Shown: positions 12,104 to 58,272, counted from the first letter of the stretch. The stretch is 64,000 bases of DNA from Ruminococcus sp. (GCA_045133455.1 JBGUUJ010000035.1:2550-66549); one strand, 5' to 3'. Program-made: numbers and translations. Notes: generated by a model not told the origin, from the sequence alone.

Positions 12104-12723
12104 TGGAACAGTTCACAGCAATTCAGACCGAATATAACGGTTATCTTTTCAGATCCCGCTTGGAAGCGAGATGGGCGGTGTTCTTTGATGCGATGGGAAT
12201 CGAATATGAGTATGAGCCGGAAAGTATCGTCCTGAGTGACGGTTCACTTTATCTGCCGGATTTCTATCTTCCTGACTTTAAGTGCTACTTCGAGGTGAAG
12301 CGCAAGAGCATTAAGGGTACAGAGGAAGAAAAGACAGTCATGGCTAAGATCAGCAATGGTGCCTATACCGACTCCTGGGCAGGCATTATCTGTTTCGGAG
12401 ATCCGATGGATGATGACCTCTACATCTTTTGCCAAGAAACCGATGACGGCGGTGGCGGCGGATACGAGGACAACGTTACGATTGGATTCCACCCGGACAC
12501 CTATGAGCCGTACCTTTTTGCCTACAACGACAGACGTGATAGAAGCTTCTTCACCCACTTCGGTGAGGACATGGAAGACGAGACGATTCCGATGCTGACT
12601 ACGGAATATGGCACCTATAAATACAAAAATTTTGTGAACGGACGTGTTTTCCGTGCCAGAAAGCAGGCTCGTCAGGCACGTTTTGAACACGGAGAGACTC
12701 CGAGAGCAAGGAGGGTTAGATAA
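12103..12723 (+). CDS. PD-(D/E)xK nuclease-fold phage protein
   Basis: FRSRLEARWAVFFDAMGIEYEYEP...YLPDFYLPDFKCYFEVK matches the D...(D/E)xK layout; RBS GAGGAGG. Confidence 0.5.
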   Translation: MEQFTAIQTEYNGYLFRSRLEARWAVFFDAMGIEYEYEPESIVLSDGSLYLPDFYLPDFKCYFEVKRKSIKGTEEEKTVMAKISNGAYTDSWAGIICFGDPMDDDLYIFCQETDDGGGGGYEDNVTIGFHPDTYEPYLFAYNDRRDRSFFTHFGEDMEDETIPMLTTEYGTYKYKNFVNGRVFRARKQARQARFEHGETPRARRVR

Positions 12724-23371: not shown

Positions 23372-23405
23372 TAGCATCGGTTAGAAATAATCGGTGCTAT
23401 TTTTA
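23372..23405 (+). terminator. Rho-independent terminator
   Basis: tagcatcgg...tcggtgcta 9-bp stem (2 G-U) followed by TTTTT. Confidence 0.65.
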
Positions 23406-23426
23406 TGCCCTATTGGAGATGAGATT

Positions 23427-39331: not shown

Positions 39332-39341
39332 GGGGGTTAAT

Positions 39342-42498: not shown

Positions 42499-42829
42499 GG
42501 TAAAGCTGATTCTTGATGTTGCCCAGCTGATGCTGAAGGTAGTTCAGGATCTGCGTACTTTATCTGACAGTGTCCAGGCGGTATGCGATGCCGTGACGGA
42601 AGGTCTGTCGGAGGAACAGCAGCCGAAGGCTATCGAGGAAAAACCTGCGGTGGAAGAGAAGCCTTCCCTTTCCCTGGAGCAGGTCAGAAGTGTTCTGGCT
42701 GTAAAAAGCCAGGCAGGACACACAGCAGAAGTCAGAGCCATCATCGGCAAGTACGGTGCAAGCCGTCTGAGCGAGATCGATGCGAAAGACTATGCAGCAG
42801 TCCTTAAGGATGCGGAGGAACTGGGCTAA
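42491..42829 (+). CDS. hypothetical phage protein
   Basis: ORF coupled to both neighbours (TAATG overlap at its 3' end). Confidence 0.4.
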   Translation: MNKVKLILDVAQLMLKVVQDLRTLSDSVQAVCDAVTEGLSEEQQPKAIEEKPAVEEKPSLSLEQVRSVLAVKSQAGHTAEVRAIIGKYGASRLSEIDAKDYAAVLKDAEELG

Positions 42830-43956
42830 TGGGAAAACACGCAGTATTATCCGCTTCCGGTTCTCACAGGTGGCTCAACTGTTCCCCGTCGGCAAGACTG
42901 GAACTGGAATTTGAGAACACCTCTTCGGAAGCGGCAAAAGAAGGAACTGCCGCACACGCTCTGTGCGAACACAAGCTGAAGAAGGCTCTGAAAAAGAGAA
43001 GCAGACGTCCTGCATCCGAGTATGACTCCGATGAGATGGAAGAATGCACAGACGGCTATGTTCAGTTTGTCATGGAGCAGTATGAGGCGGCAAAGCAGGT
43101 CTGCACCGACCCGATCATCCTCATCGAACAGCACCTGGATTTCTCCTGCTATGTACCGGATGGCTTCGGTACCGGAGACTGCATCATCGTTTCTGACGAT
43201 ACCCTCCACATCATCGACTTCAAATACGGACTCGGTGTTCTGGTGGATGCAGTGGATAATCCGCAGATGATGCTGTATGCGCTCGGTGCCCTGGAACTCT
43301 ACGATGCCCTCTATGACATCAAAGAAGTCTCCATGAGCATCTTTCAGCCGAGGCGTGAGAATGTCAGCACGTGGACCATCCCGACCTCGCAGCTGAAGGA
43401 GTGGGCAGAAAACGAACTGAAGCCGAAAGCCATCCTGGCATACAACGGTGAGGGGGTCTATGTTCCCGGCGAATGGTGTACCTTCTGCAAAGCCTCTGCA
43501 AGGTGCAGGGCAAGAGCCGAAGAAAAGCTGAAGCTGGCACAGTCCGAATTCAGACTCCCGCCGCTTCTGACCGATGCGGAGATCGAAGAGATCCTCGCAA
43601 TCATCCCGGACCTTACAAAATGGGCAAACGAGATCACAGCATATGCCACTGACGCTGCCGTAAACCACGGCAAGGAGTGGGCCGGATTTAAGGTGGTCGA
43701 AGGGCGCTCCGTCCGTAAGTACCGTGATGAGGAGAAGGTCGCAGAAGCCGCAAAGGAACACGGCTACACAGACATCTACCGTCAGTCCCTCATTCCGATG
43801 ACGGAAATGCAGAAGCTGATGGGCAAGACCAAATTTGAGGAAATTCTCGGTGACCTCATTTACAAACCACCGGGCAAGCCGACACTCGTACCTGCATCGG
43901 ACAAGCGTCCGGCTATGAACATATCAGACGCCAAAAACGACTTTAACGAAATCTAA
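42829..43956 (+). CDS. DUF2800-type PD-(D/E)xK (Cas4/RecB-like) nuclease
   Basis: LSASGSHRWLNCSPS start; GTGDCIIV...IIDFKYG; C-terminal Cys cluster CTFCKASARC. Confidence 0.75.
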   Translation: MGKHAVLSASGSHRWLNCSPSARLELEFENTSSEAAKEGTAAHALCEHKLKKALKKRSRRPASEYDSDEMEECTDGYVQFVMEQYEAAKQVCTDPIILIEQHLDFSCYVPDGFGTGDCIIVSDDTLHIIDFKYGLGVLVDAVDNPQMMLYALGALELYDALYDIKEVSMSIFQPRRENVSTWTIPTSQLKEWAENELKPKAILAYNGEGVYVPGEWCTFCKASARCRARAEEKLKLAQSEFRLPPLLTDAEIEEILAIIPDLTKWANEITAYATDAAVNHGKEWAGFKVVEGRSVRKYRDEEKVAEAAKEHGYTDIYRQSLIPMTEMQKLMGKTKFEEILGDLIYKPPGKPTLVPASDKRPAMNISDAKNDFNEI

Positions 43957-44724: not shown

Positions 44725-44746
44725 TCCGGTAACTACACACATGAAG

Positions 44747-44786
44747 GAGGCGGTATGGAGAGGGATTTCTGTACCGCCTCTTTTTT
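44747..44786 (+). terminator. Rho-independent terminator-like hairpin before polA
   Basis: gaggcggta/taccgcctc 9-bp stem followed by T6. Confidence 0.6.
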
Positions 44787-44800
44787 CATTGGAGGCGAAT

Positions 44801-46741
44801 ATGAAGAATATAGAAATCGATATTGAGACATTTTCTTCGGTCAACCTTGCCAAGTCCGGTGTGTATCGCTATGTGGAGGCTCCGGATTTTGAGATCCTGC
44901 TGTTCGGATACAGCGTGGACGGAGGTGAGGTGAAAGTGATAGACCTTGCTTCCGGAGAGACACTGCCGAAGGAGATACACGATGCCCTGGGGGATGAATC
45001 CGTCACTAAATGGGCCTTCAACGCACAGTTTGAGCGTATCTGCCTGTCCAGGTTCCTAGGCTATCCCACCGGAGAATACCTTGATCCGGAGGGCTGGAAA
45101 TGCAGTATGGTATGGTCTGCTTACATGGGTCTGCCTTTATCTCTGGAAGGCGTGGGTGCCGTACTGGGACTTGAAAAGCAGAAGCTGACCGAGGGCAAAG
45201 ACCTGATCCGTTATTTCTGTGTGCCCTGCAGTCCAACCAAGACCAACGGCGGCAGAACAAGAAATCTGCCGGAGCATGATATGGAAAAGTGGGATCGCTT
45301 CAAGGCATACAACATCCGTGATGTGGAAGCGGAGATGCAGATACAGGAAAGGCTTGTGAAGTTCCCTGTGCCGGATTCGGTGTGGGAGGAATATCACCTT
45401 GACCAGGAGATCAACGACAGAGGCATTCTGGTAGACATGCCTTTTGTGGAGCAGTGCATTGAGATCGACCGTGTATCCCGTGACAGCCTGACTGCGGCCA
45501 TGCAGGCACTGACGAAACTGGATAATCCGAACTCGGTAGTTCAGATGAAAGGCTGGCTTGCAGACAACGGACTTGAGACTGATACCCTCGGCAAGAAGGC
45601 GGTGGCGGCACTGATGAAAGATGCACCTGACCACCTGGCAGAGGTGCTTGCTCTGCGTCAGCAGCTTGCCAAGTCATCGGTGAAGAAGTATCAGGCAATG
45701 CAGAATTCTGTGTGCGCCGACAACCGTGTCAGAGGGATGTTCCAGTTCTACGGGGCCAACCGAACAGGCCGCTTCGCCGGAAGGCTGGTGCAATTGCAGA
45801 ACCTTCCTCAGAACCATATGTCCGACCTGGCTGAAGCGAGAGATCTGGTGAGGTGCGGCGATTATGATGCTTTGGATTTGCTTTACGATGATATCCCGGA
45901 TACTTTGTCACAGCTGATCCGTACTGCCTTTATCCCTCCTGAGAATAAGAACTTTATCGTGGCGGACTTTTCTGCCATTGAGGCGAGAGTTATTGCATGG
46001 TTCGCAGGAGAAGCATGGCGTTCCGAAGTGTTCAAAAGTGGCGGCGATATCTACTGTGCATCGGCATCGCAGATGTTCGGTGTGCCTGTAGAGAAGCACG
46101 GCATCAACGGTCACCTCAGACAGAAGGGCAAGATTGCAGAGCTGGCACTCGGCTACGGCGGTTCCGTAGGTGCGCTGAAGGCTATGGGTGCCCTTGAGAT
46201 GGGGCTGACCGAAGAGGAACTTCCTGATCTGGTATCTGCCTGGCGGCAGTCCAATCCGAACATCGTCCGCTTCTGGTGGGATGTGGACAGTGCGGTCAAA
46301 AAGGCTATCAAGGAAAAGACCACCCAGTCCATCCACGGCATCAGCTTCTGCTGCAGGAGCGGCATGCTGTTTATACAGCTTCCCTCAGGACGAGTTCTTT
46401 CCTATGTGAAGCCACGTATGGGTGAAAATAAGTTCGGCGGTGAATCCGTGACCTACGAGGGTGTCGGCGGCACAAAGAAATGGGAGAGGCTTGAAAGCTA
46501 CGGTCCCAAGTTTGTGGAGAACATCGTCCAGGCAACAAGCCGTGACATTCTGATGTATGCCATGCGGACACTTCAGTGCTGCAGTATCGTAGCCCATGTG
46601 CATGATGAAGTGATCATCGAGGCAGACCCTCGCATGAGCCTTAGCGCTGTCTGTGAGCAGATGGCAAGGGTGCCTGCCTGGGCAGAGGGACTTCTGCTCC
46701 GTGCTGATGGCTATATCTGTGATTTTTACAAAAAAGATTGA
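44801..46741 (+). CDS. family A DNA polymerase with 3'-5' exonuclease domain
   Basis: Exo I IDIETFS; motif A DFSAIEARV; motif B RQKGKIAELALGYGG; motif C VHDEVI. Confidence 0.9.
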   Translation: MKNIEIDIETFSSVNLAKSGVYRYVEAPDFEILLFGYSVDGGEVKVIDLASGETLPKEIHDALGDESVTKWAFNAQFERICLSRFLGYPTGEYLDPEGWKCSMVWSAYMGLPLSLEGVGAVLGLEKQKLTEGKDLIRYFCVPCSPTKTNGGRTRNLPEHDMEKWDRFKAYNIRDVEAEMQIQERLVKFPVPDSVWEEYHLDQEINDRGILVDMPFVEQCIEIDRVSRDSLTAAMQALTKLDNPNSVVQMKGWLADNGLETDTLGKKAVAALMKDAPDHLAEVLALRQQLAKSSVKKYQAMQNSVCADNRVRGMFQFYGANRTGRFAGRLVQLQNLPQNHMSDLAEARDLVRCGDYDALDLLYDDIPDTLSQLIRTAFIPPENKNFIVADFSAIEARVIAWFAGEAWRSEVFKSGGDIYCASASQMFGVPVEKHGINGHLRQKGKIAELALGYGGSVGALKAMGALEMGLTEEELPDLVSAWRQSNPNIVRFWWDVDSAVKKAIKEKTTQSIHGISFCCRSGMLFIQLPSGRVLSYVKPRMGENKFGGESVTYEGVGGTKKWERLESYGPKFVENIVQATSRDILMYAMRTLQCCSIVAHVHDEVIIEADPRMSLSAVCEQMARVPAWAEGLLLRADGYICDFYKKD

Positions 46742-47077: not shown

Positions 47078-48619
47078 ATGAAACGGATAACAAAGATTGA
47101 GGCAGCCGATACCGGAGCGGTGCGAAAGCTGCGTGTGGCAGCATACGCCAGAGTTTCCACAGACTCCGAAGAACAGCTTATCAGCCTGGATGCCCAGAAG
47201 AACCATTACGAAGTTCTAATCCGTTCCCGCAGGGACTGGGAATACGCAGGACTGTACTACGATGAAGGCATCAGCGGAACCAAGATGGCGAAGCGAGACG
47301 GTCTGCTTTCCATGTTTGCAGACTGCGAGAGAGGGCTGATCGACTATATCATCGTCAAATCCATCAGCCGATTTTCCCGAAACACGGTGGAGAGCATTGA
47401 GACTGTCCGCAGGCTCTGCAGCATGGGCATTTACATCCTGTTTGAGAAGGAGAATATCGATACCGGAAAGATGGAGGGCGAACTGCTGCTCTCCATTCTG
47501 TCAAGTCTGGCAGAAAGCGAATCCCGCTCCATTTCCGAAAACGAGACCTGGAGCATTCAGAAACGCTTCCGCAACGGCACCTACAAAATCGCCTATCCTC
47601 CCTACGGTTACGATTACACAGATGGAGAGATGGTGGTGAACCAGACGCAGAGCGAAATTGTGAAGTGGATCTTCGCAGAGGTTCTTTCCGGAAGCAGTAC
47701 AACGCAGATTGCCAAGGCACTGAATGCCAGGGGCATATCCACCAAGCGGGGCGGCAGATGGACAGGTCATACCATCAACGGCATGATCAAGAATGAGAAG
47801 TACACCGGGGATGTTATCTTCCAGAAGACCTACTCCGATGATACCTTTACACGCCGCAGGAACAACGGTGAAAGAGACCAGTTCTTCGTACAGGGACACC
47901 ACGAAGCCATCATCAGCCATGAGGATTTTGATGCCGCCAACGACATGATCGCAAGGAATGCTGCCGAGAAAGGCATCTGCGCTGACAGCCGGAAGTACCA
48001 AAACCGATACTGCTTTTCGGGAAAAATCATTTGCGGTAACTGCGGTGCAGTGTGGAAACGCAGGAAGATATCGGGTTATTTCGGCTATGCCTGCACCACG
48101 CACCTTGAAAATAAAGATGTCTGCGGTATGAAATCCATTCGGGAAGACAGCATCATGGCGGCATTTGCCACGATGATGAACAAGCTGATATTCGCAAGAT
48201 ACAAGGTCCTTCTTCCCTTCTCAAACGCACTGAAGACCGCTGAAAAGGCAGAGTGCCTGGATGAGTTTACGGCGTTGGAAGAAGGGCTTGAGAAGAACCT
48301 TCAGAAAAGACAGCAGATCACACAGCTTTTCACGAAGGGCTACCTTGACCCTGCGGTCTACGCACAGCAGAACGATGAGCTTCTGAGTGCGAGTGCAAGG
48401 CTTACCGCTGAGAAGGACGCCATCATCGCAAAGATCAGTGGTGGCAGCAGGCAGAAGGAAGCACTGGAAGACATCCTTCACTACACTTCAGGAGCTTCCA
48501 TGATGACAGAATTTGACGAAGACCTTTTCATAAGATTTGTGAACAGGGTCATCGTTTACAGCAGAACGGAGATTGGATTCGACATGAAATGCGGACCCGT
48601 CTTCCGGGAAAGGATTTGA
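47078..48619 (+). CDS. large serine recombinase
   Basis: [14 protein letters not shown] catalytic Ser region; recombinase domain; Zn ribbon CGNCG...C. Confidence 0.9.
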   Translation: MKRITKIEAADTGAVRKLRVAAYARVSTDSEEQLISLDAQKNHYEVLIRSRRDWEYAGLYYDEGISGTKMAKRDGLLSMFADCERGLIDYIIVKSISRFSRNTVESIETVRRLCSMGIYILFEKENIDTGKMEGELLLSILSSLAESESRSISENETWSIQKRFRNGTYKIAYPPYGYDYTDGEMVVNQTQSEIVKWIFAEVLSGSSTTQIAKALNARGISTKRGGRWTGHTINGMIKNEKYTGDVIFQKTYSDDTFTRRRNNGERDQFFVQGHHEAIISHEDFDAANDMIARNAAEKGICADSRKYQNRYCFSGKIICGNCGAVWKRRKISGYFGYACTTHLENKDVCGMKSIREDSIMAAFATMMNKLIFARYKVLLPFSNALKTAEKAECLDEFTALEEGLEKNLQKRQQITQLFTKGYLDPAVYAQQNDELLSASARLTAEKDAIIAKISGGSRQKEALEDILHYTSGASMMTEFDEDLFIRFVNRVIVYSRTEIGFDMKCGPVFRERI

Positions 48620-48621
48620 TT

Positions 48622-49035
48622 ATGAAGCACACACCATACGGATACGACATTGTGGGCAGTGCGGCAGTCATAAACGAAGAACAGGCTGCCAACCTGCGAA
48701 AGCTGTGTGAGAACTACCTTTCCGGCATGTCTTTTGTACAGGCGGCAAAGGATATAGGACTGGAGATGAAGCACAGCGGTGTCAAGAGACTGATGCAGAA
48801 CCCACGCTATCTTGGTGACGATTTCTATCCGGCAATACTTACTCCAGAGATTGCCCAGGCAGTGGAAGCCGAAAGGCTGAGAAGAGATGCCCTTTACAAG
48901 GGTACAAGATACAAGAAGGAAGCTGTAACCACGGTGATTCCTACAAGGTTTTCCATGAAGCGCACCGCTCTGAAATACCAAGATCCAATCAAGCAGGCAG
49001 AATACGCCTACAGTCAGATAAAGGAGGCGAAGTAA
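48622..49035 (+). CDS. recombinase-domain-only protein (no resolvase catalytic domain)
   Basis: YGYDIVGSAAVINEEQAANLRKLCENYLSGMSF resembles the recombinase domain of large serine recombinases; lacks the N-terminal Ser motif. Confidence 0.55.
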   Translation: MKHTPYGYDIVGSAAVINEEQAANLRKLCENYLSGMSFVQAAKDIGLEMKHSGVKRLMQNPRYLGDDFYPAILTPEIAQAVEAERLRRDALYKGTRYKKEAVTTVIPTRFSMKRTALKYQDPIKQAEYAYSQIKEAK

Positions 49036-50610
49036 ATGCAGGCACTGGCACAGAATGTTACCGTCATTCCGGCACGAAGACGAGTCGGTTCACAGAGAAC
49101 GGCTGCACAGGTTCAGAAAACAAGAGTTGCCGCCTACTGCCGTGTTTCTACTGACTCCGAAGAACAGGAAACCAGCTACGAAGCACAGGTCAGCCACTAC
49201 ACAGAGTACATCCAGCGAAAACCGGAATGGCAGATGGTTGAGGTCTATGCTGATGACGGTATTTCAGGCACCAACACCGCTAAGCGAGAGGAATTTAACC
49301 GCATGATCGCAGACTGCGAAGCCGGAAAGATTGATCTGATACTTACCAAGTCTATCAGCCGATTCTCAAGAAATACGCTGGACTGCCTGAAATACACAAG
49401 AAAGCTGAAAGCACTGAATATCGCCGTTTTCTTTGAAAAAGAGAACATCAACACCCTGGATTCCAAGGGTGAGGTGCTTCTTACCATCATGGCTTCCCTT
49501 GCTCAGCAGGAATCCGAATCCCTGTCCGCCAATGTGCGAATGGGTATCCAGTACCGCAACCAACAGGGCAAGGTACAGATCAACCACAACTGGTTTCTGG
49601 GCTACACCAAAGACGCAGACGGCAATCTGGTTATCGACCCGGAACAGGCAGAGATAGTCCGCCGTATTTATCGGGAGTACCTGGAAGGGGCAAGCTTCCT
49701 GCAGATCAAGAGGAGCCTGGAAGCAGACGGTATTCCCAACGGAGCGGGACACCTCAAATGGCATGAGAGCAACATCCATCAGATTCTGACCAATGAGAAG
49801 TACATCGGCGATGCCCTCCTGCAAAAGACATACACGGTCAGCATCCTGGACAAGAAACGTGCCACCAACAACGGCGAGATGCCGAAATACTATGTGGAAG
49901 GCAGTCATGAGGCAATCATCAGCAAAGATGTTTTTATGAAGGTCAAAGCAGAGATTGCAAGACGTGCCAATCTGAATCCTGGCGGTAAACGCAGAGTTTA
50001 CAGCAGCAAGTACGCTCTTTCCGGTATGGTGTTCTGCGGGCACTGTGGAGACATCTACCGCAGGGTGAAATGGAACAACCGAGGCTGCAAATCCACGGTC
50101 TGGCGATGCGTAAGCAGGGTTCTTAAGAAAGATGTGGATTTTGACTGCCCTGCAAGAACGGTAAAAGAAGAAGTTTTGCAAGGTGCTGTCCTCACAGCGG
50201 TCAACGATGCCTACGCAAGAAGGAACGCCGTCATCTCACTTCTGAAAACAAACATTCAGGAAACGGTCTTTGATGACCTGGAAGCGAAGATTGCGGCGAT
50301 TGATGGACAGCTAGCAGAACTTCAGCGGCAGTTGGTCGACAACTCCGGTAATCATGAATTGGTGGAAGAGCTGGCAGATCAGATTGATGCTCTTCGAGGA
50401 GAACGTCAGGACATCCTTGCAGAGGCAGCAGAGCGAACTGACCTGCAGTCACGAATGAACGACATGATTGCTTTCCTGGAAGAAATGCCCAAAGCTGTTA
50501 CGGAGTACAGCGAAGCCCTCGCAAGAAGGCTGGTCGATAAGATTACCATTTTCGATGAGAAGATTGTGGTGGAACTGAAATCCGGCCTTCAGATGGAAGT
50601 GGAAGGATGA
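49036..50610 (+). CDS. large serine recombinase
   Basis: [14 protein letters not shown]; Zn ribbon CGHCG...C; C-terminal coiled coil. Confidence 0.9.
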
Positions 50611-50633
50611 TTTGTCTTCCTTCTTTGTAGTTA

Positions 50634-50662
50634 TTGACATATTTCGGATAAACGAATATAAT
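50634..50662 (+). promoter_or_regulatory. consensus sigmaA promoter of the HEPN-like cassette
   Basis: TTGACA, 17-nt spacer, TATAAT; spacer shares GATAAACGA with the promoter at 57071-57099. Confidence 0.7.
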
Positions 50663-50714
50663 ATATTTGGGAAACTACTATTTCAGCGGTAGCAACTTAT
50701 CTGGGGGTTTCAGT

Positions 50715-53700
50715 ATGGATACTTTGAACTGGAAATGTATTTTTAAACATAATCAGCAAATCTATTTTACACATAACTCCTTGGCTAAAGGCGATATTTC
50801 CGATGGAGTTAATATCGTTAGGGAATATACCAAGGAAAATGTGACCGGGTGTACATATAATGGCGAATTGATTTGGCTCAGCATTATGGGCAGTAATGAA
50901 CTCATATGTATTGATTCTCAAGAAAATGAAAACTATTTGCCTATTTTATCTTACGATACTGTTCAAATTATGAATATGGTAACAGGTCAAAAGGGAATCA
51001 TGGTATTAAAAGGTGTGTGTGGTGACGAGTCTGATTTCTTCCTGTTTGATGGAATAAAAGGCTGCGTGCTCTGCAAACTCCCAATTCACAAAGAATATCT
51101 TGACTTTGCAATTGAAAGTGATGGTAAAGGATTTCTTTTGTGTGAGGAACCCATTGCTGTCCCTGGGCGTTATAGTGACGAAGTTGATGATACAGAAGTG
51201 TTGTTTTTTGCCGAAGTAACTTGGGGTACCGAAAGTTTGCACGCTAATATTGAAAGATCGATTTCGCTGTATATCGACAATAATTATGACTGCTCTGATA
51301 AACTATCTTACGGTGATAATTTGAGATTTCCGTTGTTTGACCAATACCTTTGGGAGTGGTTAGAACAGAAATCGTTCTCTTCGAGCGGAAAATACGTAAT
51401 TTATTATTCGAAAGATATCAAGGGAATCATTATTGGCAATCCGGTTGGAGGCAAAATACATAGGATTTTTTCTGTGCCTGAGGAAATTGCGGATTGTAAT
51501 AGTTGTTATTACTATAACGATGTTTCCGAGGAATTACTTATTATTACTAAATCCAATGAAATCAGAAGGTATGCGCTTTGTTGCGATTCCGAAGAAGCGA
51601 TTGAGAAATTAAATGTTGCATACGACGATGCTTATAACAAAAAAAGAAGTTTGTCTCCTAAGCATAACCCTGGAGACATGACATTTATAAACATATTGTA
51701 TCGTGCCATTGGCAGTTGTACATTCAAACCACTGGGACTTTCAGCCGCAGAAGTAGCGAATCGGCATGAAAGTATTCATCATATATCACTCACAGTTAAA
51801 ACACCTATATCCGGAAAGGTACTAATTGAAAAGGACCGGCAAGATCTTGGCTACATAGACTGTGATAACGAAGAATTCGAGAAGACCTTTGATTTTGATA
51901 CTGAAGATAGTACATTTGGCATTGTATTTCTTGCAAGTTCTATTGAAAAGGTTGTTCACTTCAATTCTTCTGTTAATGGTGGGAATCTTAAAGTTGATAT
52001 GCAAAACCATTTGCAATCCGAAGAGATTATACAATGTTGCAGCAGAATTGTCGCAAGAAGAAAACTTCAAACATATCCAACTGATATATACGCTATATAT
52101 CAATTAGGTTGGGTCGGAACAGAGGAAGATTTGAACTTCCTGTTAGGAATACTCGAAGATCATTTTCTAGAGTCTACCTTGTCTTATGGAAATGATGGAA
52201 ATCGAGTTTGGACTGCCGCGAGGACGGTAGCAGATTTGTCAACCAAATATAAAAGAAACGATGCTATTCCCCTTTTGAAACGGATTGCAAAAACAGCAAA
52301 AAATGCGGGGATGTTAAAAATAGCTGAACTTGTAGATAATTGCCGGGTAGATTTGGAAACACACAGAGATTTCGTTTCTTATAAATACCGTACCGATATT
52401 CTTATAAGAACACATTTGGTTGTTCAAGTCTACTTCAACACTAAGGACAACTGGGTTGCTGAGATTGATGGATCAGTTGGCTTCGAGAAAATGATAGATT
52501 GGTGTTATGTTAGATCGAACAAAGAACGAAACATTTTGATTGTTGAATCTGTTTATGGGAATCAGACTTTTGATATTGATATCAAGAACAATAATCCTTA
52601 TTATCGTCAGGTAATTGATGTTGATCCGCCGGTGTTTTCCAGAGAGTTAGCTCAAGAAGTGCTTAAATCCCGCGGAGATAGAATTTTGGTTATTCCTGAA
52701 GGAATAGAGACTTTGGCTGATGATTTTGCTTTATTGTTTGATGAAAAGGATGAGAAGTATCATTTTTACGAGATTGATATTCCTTCTTCGGTCAGGGTTA
52801 TTGAACCATTGTTTATAACAAAGGATCCTGGCGATGCTTGGGCATGTGGGAAAGACTTTGACTGTTTTGATGAGATAACCGTTGCAGCTGGCAATGAGTA
52901 TTTTTGCTCTGTAGATGGTGTGTTGTTTACAAAGGATATGAAAAAACTACTTTGCTATCCTTGTGGAAAGCAAGCAGAGACATATATTGTTCCAGAAGGG
53001 GTTGAAGTTATAGGTGCCTTTGCTTTCCAATGCAATCAGTTTTTAGAGAAGGTGAATTTACCGTCTACTATCAAGATTATTGAATGGAAGGCATTCAGCT
53101 TTTGTGAGAAGCTGTGTGAAATTTTTCTCCCAGATGGGCTTGAAACTATAGATGAAGATGCGTTTGAGTTCTGCAATATAAAACATCTAACGCTTCCAAA
53201 GAGTTTGAAGAAGATTCATTGGCTGAATTTGTCATCTATAGGTTCCGGCATATTAAACTTAGAGATTCTCGACAGCAATACTGAGATTGATATGTCGGGG
53301 TATTATGCAAGTGGCGAGGAGCCATATACGCCACCGTTATTCCTAATAAGGGGAAAAAATCCAGTTTTCGAGAAATACGCCAGGAGGCACAAAAGAAATT
53401 TTGCCCACGATTATTATGTTGATGAAACAGGAATTGTATGGGCAGCGGATGGAAACGAAATTATTGAATTTCCTATGCATTGGTCAAGTGATGTATACAA
53501 GATTCCCGAGAATGTAACCAGTATTCATAGGTGGGCATTTAACCAATCAGGCGTAAAACATATTATTATGCAGAGAGAACTGAAAACAGTCGGCAACACA
53601 TCAGGAAATGATTTCAGTCGAATTGCTTCTAAAACTGATTTTAGATATGACCCAGACTTTATTGTTATAGAGGAGAGCGTGAATGAGGATTTAAGACATA

Positions 53701-55055
53701 CGCAAACAGAAATGGACCTTGATACTGTTTATTCCGGAAAGAGTGGAAAAGTATATACGACAATCGAGCTACTAGGGCATGGAAGCGACGGAAGCGTATA
53801 TCGAATTCGGGAAGACTCTCGTTTTGTTGCAATGATTTATTCCGAGCATAGACGAACGGATGCTCAACATAAAACCCTCCTAGCGATGGTTGAAAACCCG
53901 TTGCCTATTGCTAAAATGATCGAACAACAAATCGAGTGGCCTGTTGATATTCTCTATGTTAATGAGGTTTTCTGTGGGTATATTATGCCGTGGATATACA
54001 ATGAAGATGCAGCTGGGGCTTTAAGTTCCTCACAACCGGAGTTGGTTGCCTCTTCCAAATTAGATATTAATCTTACGGATGCTGAACAAATGATACTTGA
54101 TGAACTCCGTACTCTTAAAGAGATGGTAGCGTCAGACCATCAAATCGCAGTGGACACTAATATAACTGTAAAATCGTTAGCCCGTTTTGTTGAAACTGAT
54201 TTACAGACTTGGATTTCAACAAATCGCCCAAGGATCGATGATGAAGCTCTGATTGAGCAATTTGCTCATAGAGCAACGGATTATATAAATGCGCATGTAA
54301 AAGGTTCAAATCAGGAGGTTCAAGAAGAAGAAAAACATCTTCGAAATGTTTTTGGTAATACTTGGAGCAGACTTCTGCCTTCAACGCAGTCTAGCTTGAT
54401 CTCGGCTAGTGTTCTTTGGAATTTATGTGCGAATATTTCGGTAGCAGGTTTTGACTACAGCGGCATTATTATAGCAGCAACATCGGCATTGGAGTCGGAA
54501 TTAAAAAGAGTGTTTTATACAGACTTCCAGACATATATGCTTTCTAAGTATGGTAATCCCCAAACACAGTCTGCGGAAAGAACATATGCTTTTTGGCCTG
54601 AACGATTGCTGTCAAAAACAAAAGCCGAATATGATAACGAAATGAGCAGAGGTTCGGCTTCGTTACCGCAGCTAGCGGATAGTTTTACCATGGGAACACT
54701 GCCGTACATGTTTAAGGATGACAAAAATCCGAATCAGCAAGGTGTTCTCCGAAAAAGAATGAGGGAATATTTGCAAACGATTGTTCTGGAAGATGTCCTA
54801 AAAAAATATACTGATAATTCTTATTCTGATCCGCTCAAAGTATTTAACAATTATTCGGATGATTACAATTTTGTGAGACAATGTGAAAGCATTCGAACTC
54901 TTTATAGAAATCCGGCTGGTCATGTAGATGTGCTGTCACGCGAAAGTGCAGAAGAATGTTATACAAGAGTAGTCGGAGTTGGAAAAGTTGATGCCTTCCG
55001 GTTTGCTCATGAGGTTCAAGGTCTTATTATGACACTTTATGGATATCTGAAATGA
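50715..55055 (+). CDS. 1446-aa multidomain protein: unassigned N-terminus, BspA-type LRRs, truncated kinase-like N-lobe, C-terminal Rx4H (HEPN-like) module
   Basis: LRR_5-like repeats 52686-53575 (YIVPEGVEVIGAFAFQCNQFLEKVNLPSTIKIIEWKAFSFCEKL); LGHGSDGSVY 53772-53801; RNPAGH 54906-54923; ATG 50715 preferred over the ORF-track start. Confidence 0.7.
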   Translation: MDTLNWKCIFKHNQQIYFTHNSLAKGDISDGVNIVREYTKENVTGCTYNGELIWLSIMGSNELICIDSQENENYLPILSYDTVQIMNMVTGQKGIMVLKGVCGDESDFFLFDGIKGCVLCKLPIHKEYLDFAIESDGKGFLLCEEPIAVPGRYSDEVDDTEVLFFAEVTWGTESLHANIERSISLYIDNNYDCSDKLSYGDNLRFPLFDQYLWEWLEQKSFSSSGKYVIYYSKDIKGIIIGNPVGGKIHRIFSVPEEIADCNSCYYYNDVSEELLIITKSNEIRRYALCCDSEEAIEKLNVAYDDAYNKKRSLSPKHNPGDMTFINILYRAIGSCTFKPLGLSAAEVANRHESIHHISLTVKTPISGKVLIEKDRQDLGYIDCDNEEFEKTFDFDTEDSTFGIVFLASSIEKVVHFNSSVNGGNLKVDMQNHLQSEEIIQCCSRIVARRKLQTYPTDIYAIYQLGWVGTEEDLNFLLGILEDHFLESTLSYGNDGNRVWTAARTVADLSTKYKRNDAIPLLKRIAKTAKNAGMLKIAELVDNCRVDLETHRDFVSYKYRTDILIRTHLVVQVYFNTKDNWVAEIDGSVGFEKMIDWCYVRSNKERNILIVESVYGNQTFDIDIKNNNPYYRQVIDVDPPVFSRELAQEVLKSRGDRILVIPEGIETLADDFALLFDEKDEKYHFYEIDIPSSVRVIEPLFITKDPGDAWACGKDFDCFDEITVAAGNEYFCSVDGVLFTKDMKKLLCYPCGKQAETYIVPEGVEVIGAFAFQCNQFLEKVNLPSTIKIIEWKAFSFCEKLCEIFLPDGLETIDEDAFEFCNIKHLTLPKSLKKIHWLNLSSIGSGILNLEILDSNTEIDMSGYYASGEEPYTPPLFLIRGKNPVFEKYARRHKRNFAHDYYVDETGIVWAADGNEIIEFPMHWSSDVYKIPENVTSIHRWAFNQSGVKHIIMQRELKTVGNTSGNDFSRIASKTDFRYDPDFIVIEESVNEDLRHTQTEMDLDTVYSGKSGKVYTTIELLGHGSDGSVYRIREDSRFVAMIYSEHRRTDAQHKTLLAMVENPLPIAKMIEQQIEWPVDILYVNEVFCGYIMPWIYNEDAAGALSSSQPELVASSKLDINLTDAEQMILDELRTLKEMVASDHQIAVDTNITVKSLARFVETDLQTWISTNRPRIDDEALIEQFAHRATDYINAHVKGSNQEVQEEEKHLRNVFGNTWSRLLPSTQSSLISASVLWNLCANISVAGFDYSGIIIAATSALESELKRVFYTDFQTYMLSKYGNPQTQSAERTYAFWPERLLSKTKAEYDNEMSRGSASLPQLADSFTMGTLPYMFKDDKNPNQQGVLRKRMREYLQTIVLEDVLKKYTDNSYSDPLKVFNNYSDDYNFVRQCESIRTLYRNPAGHVDVLSRESAEECYTRVVGVGKVDAFRFAHEVQGLIMTLYGYLK

Positions 55056-55074
55056 TTATTTGGTGGAGGCGATT

Positions 55075-55275
55075 ATGAGAGATTTCATGACGGTGCAAGA
55101 AGCGGCAACTCGATGGGGTGTAACAGAACGTCAAGTTCAAGTGCTGTGTAAGAGCGAAAAAATAGAAGGCGTATCACGCGTGGGAAGAAATTGGATTATT
55201 CCGATTGACGCAGAAAAGCCCAAAGATGGACGAATTAAATCAGGAAGATATCGTAACATAGACCGCGAACGTTGA
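55075..55275 (+). CDS. small excisionase/MerR-superfamily HTH DNA-binding protein
   Basis: MTVQEAATRWGVTERQVQVLCKSEKIEGVSRVGRNWIIPIDAEKP; RBS GGTGGAGG. Confidence 0.7.
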   Translation: MRDFMTVQEAATRWGVTERQVQVLCKSEKIEGVSRVGRNWIIPIDAEKPKDGRIKSGRYRNIDRER

Positions 55276-55445
55276 TCGTAACAGTGCCCTAGCGATAAAT
55301 ACTTGTATTACTGGGGCACTACACAAATTGAGTATAATATTTTTCTTAGCCAGCGAATGCTTCCGAGTGTGAAATGCCGAAGATTAAGTGTAAAAATAAT
55401 CTGATTGAAGTGCTGCTTTGAGCTTGAAATTTGGAGGAAGATAAA

Positions 55446-56996
55446 TTGCTTTATATACTTTATGGCGGACATACATCTATGGGCAAATCCGCAAGAGATT
55501 TTTTTCGATCCAACGGGGTGAAAATTGTAAAAAAATATCACTACTGTGATTCAACACCAGGACTAACAACTCTGTATGAACCTAGAAACTTTGTTGACGA
55601 GATTACCTTTCTTCGTAATACAGATACATTATTTAGGTATTCACTTGGAAATATACAAGTGGGTTTTAGTCAGGATGATATAATCCAAGCGGTAACCGGA
55701 AATGGAGATTATTTACTAACACTTTCAACCGCCAGGACTGATATTATTAGAAATCTTAAAGAAACTTATAGGAAAAAAGTTGTTGTGATTTTTTCTTATA
55801 CAGATGATGCGACCTTAAGAGAGTATTTTGGTTCTATGGAAATAACGCAGGCAGAGATAGAATTGCGTTGTGCTATTGGAAAGACGGTCAAAGAGTGTTT
55901 TCGCCAAAACTCAGATTTATTTGATTATACAATAATGTACGGAGGAGAGAACAGTATCTTTGATGATGAAAATATTGTGAGTCAGTGCAGGGTACTCTAC
56001 GCTAAGTCTCTAGCTCAAAAGGAAGATAATCAGTCTGATTTGTTAAGTTATGTCATTGAAATCCGCAACACAGTTCGAGAAATGGATATTAATCTGAAAC
56101 GTCTTACTCGGTTTGTGGAAGATGATCTTCAAGAGCACTTAAAAAGGAAAAAGCGTGAGTATGAGTCGGCTTATGGGTTAGCTGATAATGAACCCGCCAT
56201 AGCTTCGTTAGCAGACAGCATTACCAGTTATATAGGCAATCATATCCTACGAACAGATTTTAATGATTTGTTAAGAGAAGAAGAATTGAATTTGAACCGC
56301 TTATTTGGAGAAATATGGGATAAACTATTGCCGAGTACAAAAACTTCCTTGATTTCTGCGAATATCCTTTGGAAAAACTGTCCAAATCAAAATGCCATTT
56401 TTGATTATTCGGGTGTCTGCTTAACAGTTACATCAGCATTGGAAAATGAACTTAAATACTGGTTTTTCACTAAATATCAAGAATACTTAATCCAAAAATA
56501 TGGATCTCCTTCATTGTTGGGGAATGTATATGAAGTTTGGCCGGAGGAACTACTCGACACAAAGTACCATATCTATAAAAATGCGGAAGTCAAGCCAATT
56601 GTCAACTGCGGAGACTTATTTACTTTGGGAAAATTGCCTTTCCTATTTTATAATGAAAAGACTAGAGTAACGCGGGAACGGATGAAAGAGTACCTCGACA
56701 CTATTTTCAAAGAAACATATATGCATCAAAGAGGTGGAACCATCGGAGCCATTGATTGGATTGATTTTCAAAGGCAAAATGGAAAAATATCTTCGATAAG
56801 GGATCCTCATAGTTTTATTAGTGAATGTGAAAACATTAGAAATGTTTACCGAAATCCTGCGGCACACTCGGGTATAGTTGGTCGAAATGATGCTGAGGTT
56901 TGCTACCAGAGAGTAATTGGTCGGGTTGATGCCTACCGACATTGTTCCGAAGTTCAGGGGCTGATAATGACTCTATATAATTATTTGAAAGTATGA
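55446..56996 (+). CDS. P-loop (guanylate-kinase-like) N-terminal domain fused to the same Rx4H (HEPN-like) module
   Basis: Walker A GHTSMGKS 55467-55490; FDYTIMYGG; RNPAAH 56850-56867; C-terminal ~300 aa paralogous to 54171-55052; TTG 55446 lies 8 nt after GGAGG (alternative start 55431). Confidence 0.7.
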   Translation: MLYILYGGHTSMGKSARDFFRSNGVKIVKKYHYCDSTPGLTTLYEPRNFVDEITFLRNTDTLFRYSLGNIQVGFSQDDIIQAVTGNGDYLLTLSTARTDIIRNLKETYRKKVVVIFSYTDDATLREYFGSMEITQAEIELRCAIGKTVKECFRQNSDLFDYTIMYGGENSIFDDENIVSQCRVLYAKSLAQKEDNQSDLLSYVIEIRNTVREMDINLKRLTRFVEDDLQEHLKRKKREYESAYGLADNEPAIASLADSITSYIGNHILRTDFNDLLREEELNLNRLFGEIWDKLLPSTKTSLISANILWKNCPNQNAIFDYSGVCLTVTSALENELKYWFFTKYQEYLIQKYGSPSLLGNVYEVWPEELLDTKYHIYKNAEVKPIVNCGDLFTLGKLPFLFYNEKTRVTRERMKEYLDTIFKETYMHQRGGTIGAIDWIDFQRQNGKISSIRDPHSFISECENIRNVYRNPAAHSGIVGRNDAEVCYQRVIGRVDAYRHCSEVQGLIMTLYNYLKV

Positions 56997-57070
56997 TTTG
57001 CGTTTTGGAAAAATGCTGTTACTGAAACTTTCTTTAGCCTAATCATCTTTTCGCTTCATCCACACGCTGA

Positions 57071-57099
57071 TTGACAAAAACCTGATAAACGAGTATAAT
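57071..57099 (+). promoter_or_regulatory. consensus sigmaA promoter upstream of the XRE gene
   Basis: TTGACA, 17-nt spacer, TATAAT; same GATAAACGA spacer block as 50634-50662. Confidence 0.7.
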
Positions 57100-57203
57100 A
57101 ATTAAACTACACTATTGGTTGAAACTCTGATGATATTTGATAGGTGGAATAGACCGAGGGGGGCTTTTTATAGTCTCCAGTCAATATCAAGGAGGAAAGT
57201 GCT

Positions 57204-57629
57204 ATGGCATTTTTTAACATCAATCGTGTAGAAACCGGCAACCGAATTGTCAAGCGCCGCAAGGCGATGGGGCTGTCCAGAGATGGACTAGCTGATCTCC
57301 TGTGGGGTATTGGTGTCGAGGTATCAATCACTTCCATTGGTAAGTGGGAGCGTGGAGAGTGCGACATTTCTGAAGAACATGCGCGAGCATTGTGTCAGAT
57401 TTTCGGTTGTAAACCCTGCGAGCTGATTGTTGCCCGACTGAGTTTCTACGATGACGAGCGCGATCAGCTCGCCCCTTTAAAGATTACATATTTTCATATA
57501 TTGACGAGCATTTGCTTACGCAGGTGCTCGTCTTTTTTGTTAACTGACGGTTTCTGTGATCTGAACATGAAACGGCTATACTGGGATTATACATTTTGGG
57601 CGGAGGATTGCTTCCATGAAAGTATCTGA
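57204..57629 (+). CDS. XRE-family HTH regulator (C-terminal ~60 aa doubtful)
   Basis: IVKRRKAMGLSRDGLADLL...SITSIGKWERGECDISEEHARALCQIFGC; a perfect terminator hairpin lies inside the ORF at 57503-57538. Confidence 0.65.
   Translation: MAFFNINRVETGNRIVKRRKAMGLSRDGLADLLWGIGVEVSITSIGKWERGECDISEEHARALCQIFGCKPCELIVARLSFYDDERDQLAPLKITYFHILTSICLRRCSSFLLTDGFCDLNMKRLYWDYTFWAEDCFHESI
57503..57538 (+). terminator. intrinsic terminator-like hairpin inside the XRE ORF
   Basis: gacgagca/tgctcgtc 8-bp perfect stem, 14-nt loop, T6. Confidence 0.6.
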
Positions 57630-58272
57630 CGAAGTTGTGTTCTTGGAAGAAGCTTTCGATGTTCTCAATCAGAGATTTTTTGAAAGTGCACTTTCAAGAC
57701 CTGCAATTACCATTCAGAGCACTCCCGGTGCTCATGGTCATTTTACTCCTTATGATGCGTGGGACGACAGCGGTCTCAAGCTAAAGGAAATCAATCTTGG
57801 TGCAGAGTCTCTTCATAGACCTGTTCCGAATATTATCGCTACTTTGATGCATGAGATGGTTCACTATTGGTGCCATTCTCAAGGCATCAAGGATACCAGC
57901 CGTGGCAACACTTATCACAACAAGCGCTTCAAGGAAGAGGCCGAGAAGAGAGGCTTGATTATCACGTCCGCTCCCCTTATTGGATACAGTGTTACACATC
58001 CTGCACCTGAGCTTGTGAGCCTTGTTCAGAATATGGGCTGGGATAACAAGCTTAAGCTTTATCGAAGCCCAAAGGGAAAGCTGGCATCTGGCAAGGCAGG
58101 TGGAAACAATGATCCTGGTGGGGATTCAGATACAAATAATGCACCGAAGAAGAAGTCATCTACCCGTAAGTACATCTGCCCTAAATGTGGGCTTTCCATC
58201 CGTGCAACCAAGACAGTCAGAATAGCGTGTATGGATTGCGGCAACATCCAGATGGAAGAGGCTGCTGCCTAA
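57616..58272 (+). CDS. SprT-like zinc metalloprotease with C-terminal zinc ribbon
   Basis: LMHEMVHYW (HExxH); CPKCG...(x16)...CMDCG. Confidence 0.8.
   Translation: MKVSDEVVFLEEAFDVLNQRFFESALSRPAITIQSTPGAHGHFTPYDAWDDSGLKLKEINLGAESLHRPVPNIIATLMHEMVHYWCHSQGIKDTSRGNTYHNKRFKEEAEKRGLIITSAPLIGYSVTHPAPELVSLVQNMGWDNKLKLYRSPKGKLASGKAGGNNDPGGDSDTNNAPKKKSSTRKYICPKCGLSIRATKTVRIACMDCGNIQMEEAAA

Follow-up and report, generated by a model that had tools for sequence, protein, structure and literature searches.

A C-terminal module shared by two neighbouring proteins of a Ruminococcus mobile element is probably a divergent HEPN-superfamily effector

Two neighbouring genes in a 64,000-nucleotide stretch of DNA from Ruminococcus sp. 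(the window) encode proteins, here ORF A and ORF B, which a sequence-only reading had described as ending in the same module and beginning with unrelated domains. The locus therefore raises the questions of whether the shared module is real, what kind of domain it is and what it might do in two such different proteins. The features discussed below are collected in Table 1.

Table 1 Positions of the features in the window
Feature	Position (nt)	Strand	Basis or remark
Large serine recombinase genes	47078-48619, 49036-50610	+	directly upstream of cassette
Small ORF between the recombinase genes	48589-49035	+	within recombinase block 47078-50610
Perfect sigma-70 consensus, TTGACA-17-TATAAT, upstream of ORF A	50634-50662	+	consensus match only
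ORF A, large LRR-HEPN protein	50667/50715-55055	+	ORF call: 1462 aa from TTG 50667
ORF A N-terminal sensor unit, aa 17-1005	50715-53681	+	conserved, contains BspA-type LRR_5 repeats
ORF A 135-aa insert, aa 1006-1140	53682-54086	+	sits where close homologues have guanylate-kinase domain
Module copy A (aa 1135-1462), helical stalk then HEPN-like core	54069-55052	+	HMM E = 1.4e-138
E-x3-K motif copy A, ESELK, aa 1276-1280	54492-54506	+	DYSG before it, 54453-54464
Rx4H motif copy A, RNPAGH, aa 1414-1419	54906-54923	+	R, N, H invariant
Helix-turn-helix gene, 66 aa (MRDFMTVQEAATRWGV...), between A and B	55075-55275	+	orthologue HTH matches
ORF B	55431/55446-56996	+	ORF call: 521 aa from 55431
ORF B N-terminal domain, ~200 aa, no family match	55431-56027	+	GxxxxGK-like motif, non-conserved
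Module copy B (aa 200-521), helical stalk then HEPN-like core	56028-56993	+	HMM E = 1.8e-126
E-x3-K motif copy B, ENELK, aa 338-342	56442-56456	+	DYSG before it, 56403-56414
Rx4H motif copy B, RNPAAH, aa 474-479	56850-56867	+	alignments
Second perfect sigma-70 consensus, just past ORF B	57071-57099		consensus match only

The two proteins were compared by BLASTP, which aligned residues 1135-1462 of A with 200-520 of B with 130 identities in 344 columns (38%; 54% positives) at E = 4e-63. By Smith-Waterman the module pair scored 550, far above the shuffled-sequence background that had been set beforehand as a check (300 shuffles gave 36.0 ± 5.7 with a maximum of 64; z = 90), while the N-terminal parts scored 44 against 39.3 ± 5.2 for shuffles (z = 0.9). 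This confirms that the C-terminal modules are paralogous and that nothing before them can be aligned. Every block quoted as shared, EVQGLIMTLY included, was found in both proteins, with SLARFVETDLQ at nt 54174-54206 and RLTRFVEDDLQ at 56100-56132, and the codon positions given for the two Rx4H motifs were exact. Only the extent of the module needed correction: its start had been put at 54171 and the similarity opens about 100 nt earlier, near 54069.

The idea of a single module placed behind different input domains also stood, but of the three domain calls made for the window two were not supported. The leucine-rich repeats of ORF A were recovered by Pfam as LRR_5 (aa 772-851, nt 52980-53219, E = 6.3e-20), and the first ~770 residues matched no known family. 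A pseudokinase had been placed at about residues 1020-1130 of ORF A; no Pkinase-type Pfam match was obtained there at E ≤ 1, and kinases were absent from the phmmer matches to all PDB chains at E ≤ 10. The segment is just 135 aa long, has no Pfam or PDB match, is seen elsewhere only in P0022, P0023, P0027 and P0029, and substitutes for a guanylate kinase (GK) domain in homologues that are 91-94% identical (229 aa in P0025). The P-loop kinase proposed for ORF B fared no better. Its N-terminus gave no PF00625 or P-loop match in Pfam, NCBIfam or PDB and an hhalign probability of 0.07-0.2% against the true GK domains (PF00625) of paralogous module proteins (P0011-16, P0024-36), and its orthologues read GKS, GNA, GYA, GAE or GKI at the Walker-like site, so that neither the lysine nor the S/T after it is constant.

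The start of ORF A is likely to be ATG 50715 (residue 17), giving 1446 aa, because homologues P0022 and P0025 begin at that residue and because the perfect -35/-10 promoter match ends only 5 nt before TTG 50667. For ORF B the likely start is TTG 55446, which has GGAGG 9 nt upstream and gives 516 aa, a length equal to that of P0001.

The identity of the module was then sought in its conserved residues. According to excerpts of the published HEPN census (Anantharaman et al. 2013, PMC3710099), the hallmarks of this superfamily are Rx4-6H, with a typically polar N, D or H after the arginine, and, further upstream, a second conserved residue that is acidic and usually part of Ex3[KR] in helix 2. 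Measured against those excerpts, both copies carry both: RNPAGH and ESELK in A, RNPAAH and ENELK in B. The R, N and H of RNxxxH are invariant in alignments A1-A4, at identities down to 24%; across the same range, A1-A3 included, the glutamate of E-x3-K is invariant and its lysine near-invariant (90% or more). Among 144 representatives that are mutually less than 50% identical, 137 have [YF]RNxxxH, with differing residues between R-N and H, and the signature of the family can be written DYSG...ALE.ELK ... FT[LM]G ... YRNPA[AG]H. The conservation of the R and H residues in homologues, set beforehand as a check, is borne out: they belong to a HEPN-type RNxxxH with an upstream E-x3-K.

No model in Pfam, NCBIfam, PADLOC or PHROG covers the shared module, and the two window copies gave no direct match to HEPN Pfam models at E ≤ 1. 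Membership signals came from relatives. Among close ones, Cas_Csm6_HEPN matched two members at 0.0064 and Hypoth_Ymh was matched at 0.08. In 66 short divergent relatives the commonest Pfam families were Hypoth_Ymh (13), DUF4145 (10; best E 1.9e-6) and HEPN_Swt1 (9; best E 6e-6), all of them HEPN families in the excerpted census (PMC3710099). These matches are mostly under the gathering score; those to HEPN_Swt1 and Hypoth_Ymh fall on the RNxxxH segment, and at least some of those to DUF4145 lie in a separate N-terminal domain, outside the module. RnlA-toxin_DBD appeared once, at E = 0.3.

The module consists of a stalk of long helices (~90-120 aa), which match coiled-coil Pfam families, and a ~240-aa core with an insert of ~100 aa. 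AlphaFold models were obtained for the core of copy A (m392e2a3388b0; pLDDT 87.4, pTM 0.85) and for copy B (m95f5692c2ef3; pLDDT 82.2, pTM 0.82), the motif loop having low confidence in both (pLDDT about 47-66). In the core model a long helix (H47-77) bearing E-x3-K is followed by the variable insert, a helix at 184-194, Y195-RNPAGH in a loop and, last, a C-terminal helix with a kink. HEPN domains, as described in the excerpts, are built on a four-helix up-down core; a variable insert separates helices 2 and 3, and the motif closes helix 3 or opens the loop that follows (PMC3710099). The helix order predicted in both models is compatible with this. Three fold searches gave RnlA, LsoA and RNase LS HEPN toxins as the matches of highest probability, none of them significant: 6y2q_A (probability 0.75, rmsd 1.9 Å over 63 columns), 4i8o_A (probability 0.44) and BFVD A0A8S5Q396 (probability 0.66, TMq 0.46), all with E above 1. 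The best Foldseek E-values, 0.24-0.8, were also non-significant and most matches were generic helical bundles.

The module is carried by 1343 representative clusters, always at the C-terminus, behind Sel1 (30/60), LRR_5, TPR, LRR_8, GK, NB-ARC/AAA_16/nSTAND6 or receiver domains. The sensor unit of ORF A (residues 17-1005) is 94% identical to residues 1-989 of P0025 and 50% identical to residues 1-988 of the TIR-bearing P0037, and in both cases the similarity stops at one common junction. After residue ~1005 the same unit is joined to TIR_2 in P0037-42 and P0044-49, to GK plus module in P0024-36 or to insert plus module. As these alternatives share a single junction, the module behaves as an effector unit, in agreement with the earlier suggestion.

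Compared with known HEPN families (Swt1/Abi2-like, Ymh PF09509 and DUF4145-like), as far as the census excerpts describe them (PMC3710099), the module is alike in Rx4H, in E-x3-K, in the N after R, in its predicted all-alpha core, in the predicted variable insert before the motif helix and in following, at the C-terminus, a variety of sensor or enzymatic domains of conflict systems. It differs in the size of its core and insert and in the ~90-aa stalk that always precedes it, and the matches of its relatives to the Swt1, Ymh and DUF4145 models are weak to moderate. Firmicutes proteins that join Sel1 to a DUF4145-like HEPN domain are already recorded in the excerpts, in which fusions to LRR_5 or guanylate kinase were not found (PMC3710099).

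The surroundings place the genes on a mobile element. Homologues of the recombinases in L009 and L014 match Resolvase, Recombinase and Zn_ribbon_recom, phage genes lie upstream within the window, and the GC content of the cassette (0.38-0.41) is below that of its flanks (0.46-0.53). The cassette is accessory cargo of a phage-like mobile element. Other loci of the family adjoin serine or tyrosine recombinases on phage-like or conjugative elements, and the TIR variant adjoins a Wadjet-like cluster. Searches of 50,697 phage records, 72,556 plasmids and IMG/VR gave no relative, and neither protein matched any family among the 5027 models of PADLOC-DB v2 at E ≤ 1. A 66-aa HTH gene stands directly 3' of every LRR-HEPN gene sampled, ~20 nt past its stop; it is the only conserved small neighbour and accompanies LRR-type genes alone, and its orthologues at other loci match HTH_59 or HTH_17, mostly with matches marked weak. 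The two sigma-70 consensus matches flank A, HTH and B as one unit, as matches of sequence only.

The reading that best accommodates these results is that the shared module probably joins a stalk to a divergent RNase effector of the HEPN superfamily, within a candidate immune or conflict cassette. It is unlikely that A and B instead form an obligate paired receptor, in which the modules would hetero-dimerise into one composite active site of two HEPN domains (cf. Cas13), with the LRR protein as the sensor and the other as a helper or regulator, as in paired plant NLRs. Such pairing is favoured by the adjacency of module genes from distinct deep clades in five layouts (window/L014, L009-11, L001/2, L004-6 and L012), well above chance for so rare a family, by the complete set of catalytic-type residues in both copies, by two HEPN-type motifs in one chain in some relatives (P0200) and by the promoter matches that flank the genes as a single unit. 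Against this, 26 of 28 species-level loci have a single module gene, LRR-GK-HEPN with HTH occurs without a second one in L044/45 and L046, B-type and GK-type genes are solitary in L007 and L003, and the partner is interchangeable (B-type, GK-type or Sel1-type), which suggests stacking rather than a co-evolved pair. Paired module genes recur in the ORF A/B subfamily and are facultative; an obligate A/B heterodimer is therefore unlikely and is not required by the data, and co-assembly of ORF A with ORF B may occur. Less probable still is a toxin-antitoxin or addiction role, in which the cassette would stabilise the element instead of acting against phage and its HEPN toxins would be restrained by the HTH protein or by their N-terminal domains. 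HEPN domains are common among such toxins (HepT/MntA and RnlA/RnlB in the census excerpts, PMC3710099), and both the constant HTH neighbour and the position beside recombinases would suit it. However, a nucleotidyltransferase (MNT) or RnlB-type gene was present in none of the neighbourhood tables examined, B-type, GK-type and Sel1-type module genes have no HTH neighbour, and large sensors made of repeats, like STAND NTPases and TIR swapping, typify triggered immune effectors and not toxin-antitoxin pairs.

That the module is instead a non-enzymatic helical oligomerisation or scaffold domain, with R, N, H, E and K in structural or ligand-binding roles, seems very improbable. Its stalk of long helices makes up about a third of the module, the fold searches returned mostly generic bundles at non-significant E-values, and inactive HEPN domains are on record in the census excerpts, where, however, loss of activity goes with loss of the motif (PMC3710099). 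Here R, N, H and E-x3-K are the most conserved residues family-wide while their surroundings drift to ~24% identity, and at one and the same junction the module's place can be taken by TIR, which is an enzymatic effector. It is scarcely credible that ORF A belongs among the BspA-type LRR adhesins, at the surface or secreted, with the module serving for envelope anchoring or secretion. The LRR_5 repeats do match adhesin-type models (NCBIfam HupY/LrrG at 5.9e-11, and Gli349) and more distant LRR_5 homologues (P0064-P0073) have surface-protein domains, but the NCBIfam matches, which span no more than ~80 aa of the repeats, score far under the cut-offs. Inspection by eye showed no hydrophobic, signal-peptide-like stretch at the N-terminus of ORF A or ORF B, and the module is also fused to cytoplasmic GK, receiver and STAND NTPase domains as well as being swapped with TIR.

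Three known systems resemble the module proteins in part. RnlA and LsoA are multi-domain proteins that take part in phage conflict and end in a HEPN domain. As the best matches by probability in PDB and BFVD (not significant, E above 1) they are the nearest structural comparison, and the module proteins differ from them in lacking NTD and NRD domains and a neighbouring RnlB-like antitoxin and in having other N-terminal partners. In RNase L and Ire1 a repeat or sensor domain and a (pseudo)kinase precede a KEN/HEPN RNase that is activated by self-association. The order in P0024-36 of repeats that would bind a ligand, GK as a nucleotide-binding kinase-type domain and the HEPN-like module shares this design logic by analogy only, with common descent of the architecture unsupported: the module proteins have no protein-kinase fold, and GK, as a P-loop kinase, has no relationship to protein kinases. 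In the census excerpts KEN is described as a circularly permuted HEPN (PMC3710099), whereas the order predicted for the module is the canonical, unpermuted one. With Avs and NLR-related STAND proteins and TIR-domain defence proteins the family shares one sensor scaffold with alternative TIR or nuclease-type effectors and a location on mobile elements (the TIR variant near its Wadjet-like cluster), and some members carry NB-ARC, AAA_16 or nSTAND6. The window proteins differ in having neither a STAND NTPase nor a PADLOC match.

The homology of the copies, the conservation of the motifs, the HEPN membership signals, the C-terminal position, the exchange with TIR and the mobile-element context are established here. 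From them, and by analogy with RNase L/Ire1, RnlA and Csm6, we infer an RNase activity, a trigger, oligomerisation and a defence role for the module proteins. ORF A and ORF B would each comprise a sensor or regulatory N-terminus, a stalk and a HEPN domain, encoded beside a small HTH gene, and the cassette is carried, next to recombinases, by the phage-like mobile element, whose host is a gut member of the Bacillota. The HEPN domain would be kept inactive by the repeat or N-terminal region until that region bound a trigger, probably a component of a phage or other invader. Self-association of the stalks would then juxtapose two HEPN domains to give the active RNase; HEPN RNases usually work as dimers, which makes dimerisation of the module plausible. 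RNxxxH with the upstream E-x3-K is predicted to cleave RNA independently of metal, and the resulting degradation of RNA would abort the infection or arrest the cell.

Most likely each of the two paralogues works as a sensor-effector protein in its own right. The module family is uncatalogued and most likely new, the principle of a HEPN effector being already known, and from its architecture and context the cassette is a candidate for a role in defence.

ORF A, a large LRR protein, and its smaller neighbour ORF B were compared by BLASTP, and residues 1135–1462 of ORF A aligned with residues 200–520 of ORF B at 38% identity (130/344, E = 4e-63). The Smith–Waterman score of this pair was 550, against 36.0 ± 5.7 over 300 shuffles (z = 90), and the N-terminal parts of the two proteins gave z = 0.9. 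This confirms the proposal, made in a sequence-only reading of the window, that the two proteins have a C-terminal module in common. All the conserved blocks quoted in that reading were found in both proteins, and the Rx4H codons are exactly where it had placed them, at 54906–54923 and 56850–56867. Similarity begins about 100 nt earlier than that reading had it, near 54069.

Two perfect matches to the sigma-70 consensus (TTGACA-17-TATAAT), putative promoters by sequence, bracket ORF A, a 66-aa HTH gene and ORF B, at 50634–50662 and 57071–57099. As the former ends 5 nt before TTG 50667, translation of ORF A probably does not begin at that codon; homologues begin at the residue encoded by ATG 50715, which is therefore the likely start. 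For ORF B the likely start is TTG 55446, because GGAGG is found 9 nt upstream and an identical database protein, P0001, has 516 aa.

Features of the window, and architectural classes among homologues of the N-terminal 1134 aa of ORF A (positions in nucleotides of the window unless residues are stated)
Feature	Position	Strand	Description
VapE-like	12723–15071	+	
SNF2	15529–16869	+	
TerL	23394–25028	+	
Prophage_tail	36782–39331	+	
DUF859	39324–40694	+	
DUF2800/PD-(D/E)XK	42829–43956	+	
PolA	44741–46741	+	
ORF A	50667–55055	same as ORF B	1462 aa
ORF A middle segment	53682–54086		aa 1006–1140, 135-aa insert; unrelated counterpart in homologue P0025 is aa 990–1218, a 229-aa guanylate-kinase domain
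ORF B	55431–56996	same as ORF A	521 aa
Window-type class	after residue ~1005		135-aa insert, then stalk and HEPN
GK class (P0024–P0036)	after residue ~1005		guanylate kinase (PF00625) fused ahead of stalk and HEPN
TIR class (P0037–P0042)	after residue ~1005		TIR_2 domain

The window is a phage-like element with VapE-like and SNF2 helicases, TerL, tail proteins, DUF2800 and PolA, and these phage-type genes are followed by large serine recombinase genes downstream. The gene set on the + strand between 1 and 47000 is siphovirus-like, and a 1028-aa AAA_5 protein is encoded at 1688–4774 with large ORFs beside it. In the cassette itself the order is ORF A, the 66-aa HTH gene (55075–55275) and ORF B, followed by HTH_3 and SprT-like genes. 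This layout recurs in four homologous loci (L009–11 and L014), and in L044–46 it is accompanied by other recombinases and conjugation genes. The GC content of the cassette (window 50000–58000) is 0.384–0.406, against 0.49–0.53 upstream (42–50 kb) and 0.46–0.48 downstream, suggesting that the element took up this cargo independently of its backbone. The HTH gene follows every LRR-HEPN gene sampled (L009–12, L014, L044–46) and does not follow the TIR variants (L013, L047); its product could act in regulation, or as a partner of the antitoxin kind. It begins about 20 nt past the ORF A stop, and its orthologues have HTH_59/HTH_17 matches, mostly weak.

The module had no match in Pfam, NCBIfam, PADLOC, PHROGs or PDB chains (phmmer), and none was found when the profile of A2, one of the alignments of the module, was searched against the PDB. 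A word-indexed search gave 21 relatives only; an exhaustive profile search gave 1343 representative clusters, defined at 50% identity, with E ≤ 1e-3, of which 318 have E ≤ 1e-30, and the module was C-terminal in essentially all of the 150 matches listed. The motifs D-Y-S-G, A-L-E-x-E-L-K, F-T-x-G and Y-R-N-x-x-x-H are invariant or nearly so in the alignments down to 24% identity, so the R and H singled out in the sequence-only reading are indeed kept; [YF]RNxxxH is present in 137 of 144 representatives, with its three middle residues variable. The species-level genomes carrying the module are nearly all Bacillota, chiefly Lachnospiraceae and other gut and rumen Clostridia, and deposited phage and plasmid records and IMG/VR yielded no relatives. 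The public names of ten relatives were in every case "hypothetical protein". The sole archaeal match is on a 2-kb contig binned as Methanobrevibacter (L041, 212–1636) and could be bin contamination or horizontal transfer. Some module genes are split by apparent frameshifts, one in a Faecousia MAG (L003/L015, 7713–9218, GK 91 aa + 409 aa) and one, as two overlapping ORFs, in a Carnobacteriaceae MAG (L032, 2311–4862); these may be pseudogenes or assembly errors.

The HEPN census (PMC3710099) characterises HEPN domains by an Rx4-6H motif in which R is followed by a polar residue (N, D or H), and by an upstream acidic residue, usually within Ex3[KR], on helix 2; the core has four helices, of which the second and third are separated by a variable insert and the third ends in the motif. 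Both sequence features are found exactly in the module, as RNPA[AG]H and as ESELK/ENELK. AlphaFold models were obtained for the module of ORF B (pLDDT 82.2) and for a trimmed core of that of ORF A (pLDDT 87.4), and in both the order of elements fits that of a HEPN domain, with a long ExxxK helix, an insert of about 100 aa, a motif-ending helix and C-terminal helices, the RNxxxH motif itself falling in a lower-confidence loop. Foldseek searches with the full module and the trimmed core against the PDB and BFVD gave no significant match; the highest-probability matches in all three non-significant searches were RnlA, LsoA or RNase LS-like HEPN toxins, and this recurrent ranking is the one part of the fold results that was counted in favour of HEPN.

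Cas_Csm6_HEPN (0.0064) and Hypoth_Ymh were matched weakly by close relatives of the module. In a set of 66 short divergent relatives the top three Pfam families by member count were Hypoth_Ymh (13), DUF4145 (10, best E-value 1.9e-6) and HEPN_Swt1 (9, best E-value 6e-6), all classed as HEPN families in PMC3710099. Per-protein coordinates showed that the Swt1 and Ymh matches map onto the RNxxxH segment of the module. The DUF4145 matches were dropped as direct evidence on the module, as at least one is in a separate N-terminal domain (P0200, 139–176). This 540-aa relative combines two HEPN-type motifs in its chain, GRNMAAH in the N-terminal DUF4145-type region, which is above the Pfam gathering score, and YRNKAAH in the module. 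Nine further short relatives also match DUF4145, and two HEPN-type domains per chain are possibly present in other relatives of about 500 aa, such as the P0138–P0218 group. The profiles point indirectly but consistently to HEPN membership. The module is best described as a helical stalk followed by a divergent HEPN-superfamily domain, on motifs that agree with that superfamily and on fold and profile evidence that is suggestive but not conclusive.

The N-terminal parts had been read as LRR/pseudokinase in ORF A and as a P-loop kinase in ORF B. The LRR is real, by Pfam. No kinase match was found for ORF A in Pfam or among PDB chains, and the reading of its 135-aa insert as a pseudokinase was rejected on these results. 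The N-terminus of ORF B had no match in Pfam, NCBIfam or the PDB, its Walker-like lysine varies among its own orthologues, and hhalign against the true GK domains of paralogues gave a probability of ≤0.2% with two alignment sets; the kinase assignment was not borne out. MAFFT places GGHTSMGKS under GPSGAGR and LTT under TTR, and this N-terminus may be a degenerate GK derivative. Despite that placement the reading was not adopted, given the hhalign values and the failure of jackhmmer to connect ORF B N-termini with GK domains.

The N-terminal homologues of ORF A share residues 17 to ~1005, after which the architectural classes diverge. P0025 and ORF A are 94% identical up to this junction and 91% identical in the module, with unrelated middle segments, and the break coincides with the junction that joins TIR to the sensor in P0037. 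The pattern points to a clean, apparently recent cassette exchange between ORF A-type and P0025-type middles. In P0044–49 the same TIR as in P0037–42 is attached after residue ~687. P0037 adjoins a DUF2397, DUF2398, SbcC_Walker_B and DUF3323/DUF2399 cluster (L013, 1–7048 and 8001–11477) that looks like Wadjet, a defence-island context. The C-terminus of P0051, a more distant homologue of the ORF A sensor, is by eye a different TIR-like sequence (aa ~890–1062, MIFISHSTKDKEY...), which hints at further effector types on this scaffold. Across the family the upstream partners of the module are Sel1 repeats (30 of 60 sampled), LRR_5, TPR, LRR_8, GK, NB-ARC/AAA_16/nSTAND6 and a receiver domain. This range is the pattern of a putative death or arrest effector carried on interchangeable sensors. 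In the stand-alone GK-module proteins P0011–P0016 the Walker lysine is replaced by arginine (GPSGAGR); most of the fused LRR-GK-module proteins (P0024–P0036) keep GPSAAGK, though not P0036 (GPSAARK). The role of the GK domain may be that of a switch that binds nucleotides, and not that of a kinase.

A mechanism can be proposed with RNase L/Ire1, RnlA and Csm6 as analogues: the HEPN domain would be kept inactive by the N-terminal region until a trigger is bound. The stalks would next self-associate and so place two HEPN domains side by side, which would cut RNA via RNxxxH and ExxxK, and cell arrest or aborted infection would follow. A GK-type middle cassette, where present, could serve as a nucleotide-dependent switch.

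Whether ORF A and ORF B act as one unit or two was considered. Two module genes are adjacent in five distinct layouts of the window subfamily, the partners coming from different deep clades (LRR-type, B-type, GK-type and Sel1-type). This is too frequent for chance, and it keeps a hetero-oligomer alive. That the two proteins form an obligate heterodimer is nevertheless unlikely, and the idea was downgraded: a lone module gene is present at 26 of the 28 species-level loci, LRR-GK-HEPN occurs with the HTH gene and no second module gene in L044/45 and L046, and solitary B-type and GK-type genes exist. The conserved unit of the LRR clade is the large protein with the small HTH gene. This, together with the single-gene loci, favours the reading of module proteins as independent sensor-effectors, often stacked, which may co-assemble.

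A more far-reaching scheme would make the locus a bacterial equivalent of paired immune receptors on an RNase-L-like plan, in which an LRR sensor-HEPN and a helper paralogue form a hetero-oligomeric RNase through their stalks, under GK-derived nucleotide-dependent switches that some members retain whole and that in the window have degenerated or been replaced. On this scheme the prophages and ICEs of gut Bacillota would carry a large class of abortive-infection systems that has escaped recognition, and its sensors, switches and effectors would be traded as cassettes at fixed junctions. Taken as a whole this scheme is distinctly improbable.

It is well established that mobile elements carry HEPN effectors attached to repeat sensors, and no new principle is involved here. 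Literature searches found no description of the module family or of an LRR/GK-HEPN architecture, nor of an LRR_5/GK/stalk/HEPN architecture in which TIR is exchanged at a fixed junction and paralogues pair facultatively. The sole partial precedent found is a remark, in the census (PMC3710099), on DUF4145-like HEPN domains fused to Sel1 in Firmicutes.

If the HEPN reading is true, the module is the effector of a family of 1343 clusters, mostly from gut and rumen Bacillota in the genomes sampled, that Pfam, NCBIfam, PADLOC and PHROGs do not recognise, and with a module profile many Sel1, LRR and TPR proteins now called "hypothetical" could be annotated as candidate immune RNases. The exchange of TIR, GK and HEPN, or insert and HEPN on one scaffold at a sharp junction is a natural experiment on the rewiring of bacterial immune proteins, and on what a guanylate-kinase-like domain contributes to the control of a HEPN RNase. 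Pairing of paralogues, which recurs but is facultative, offers a tractable test of paired cooperation among bacterial sensor-effector proteins.
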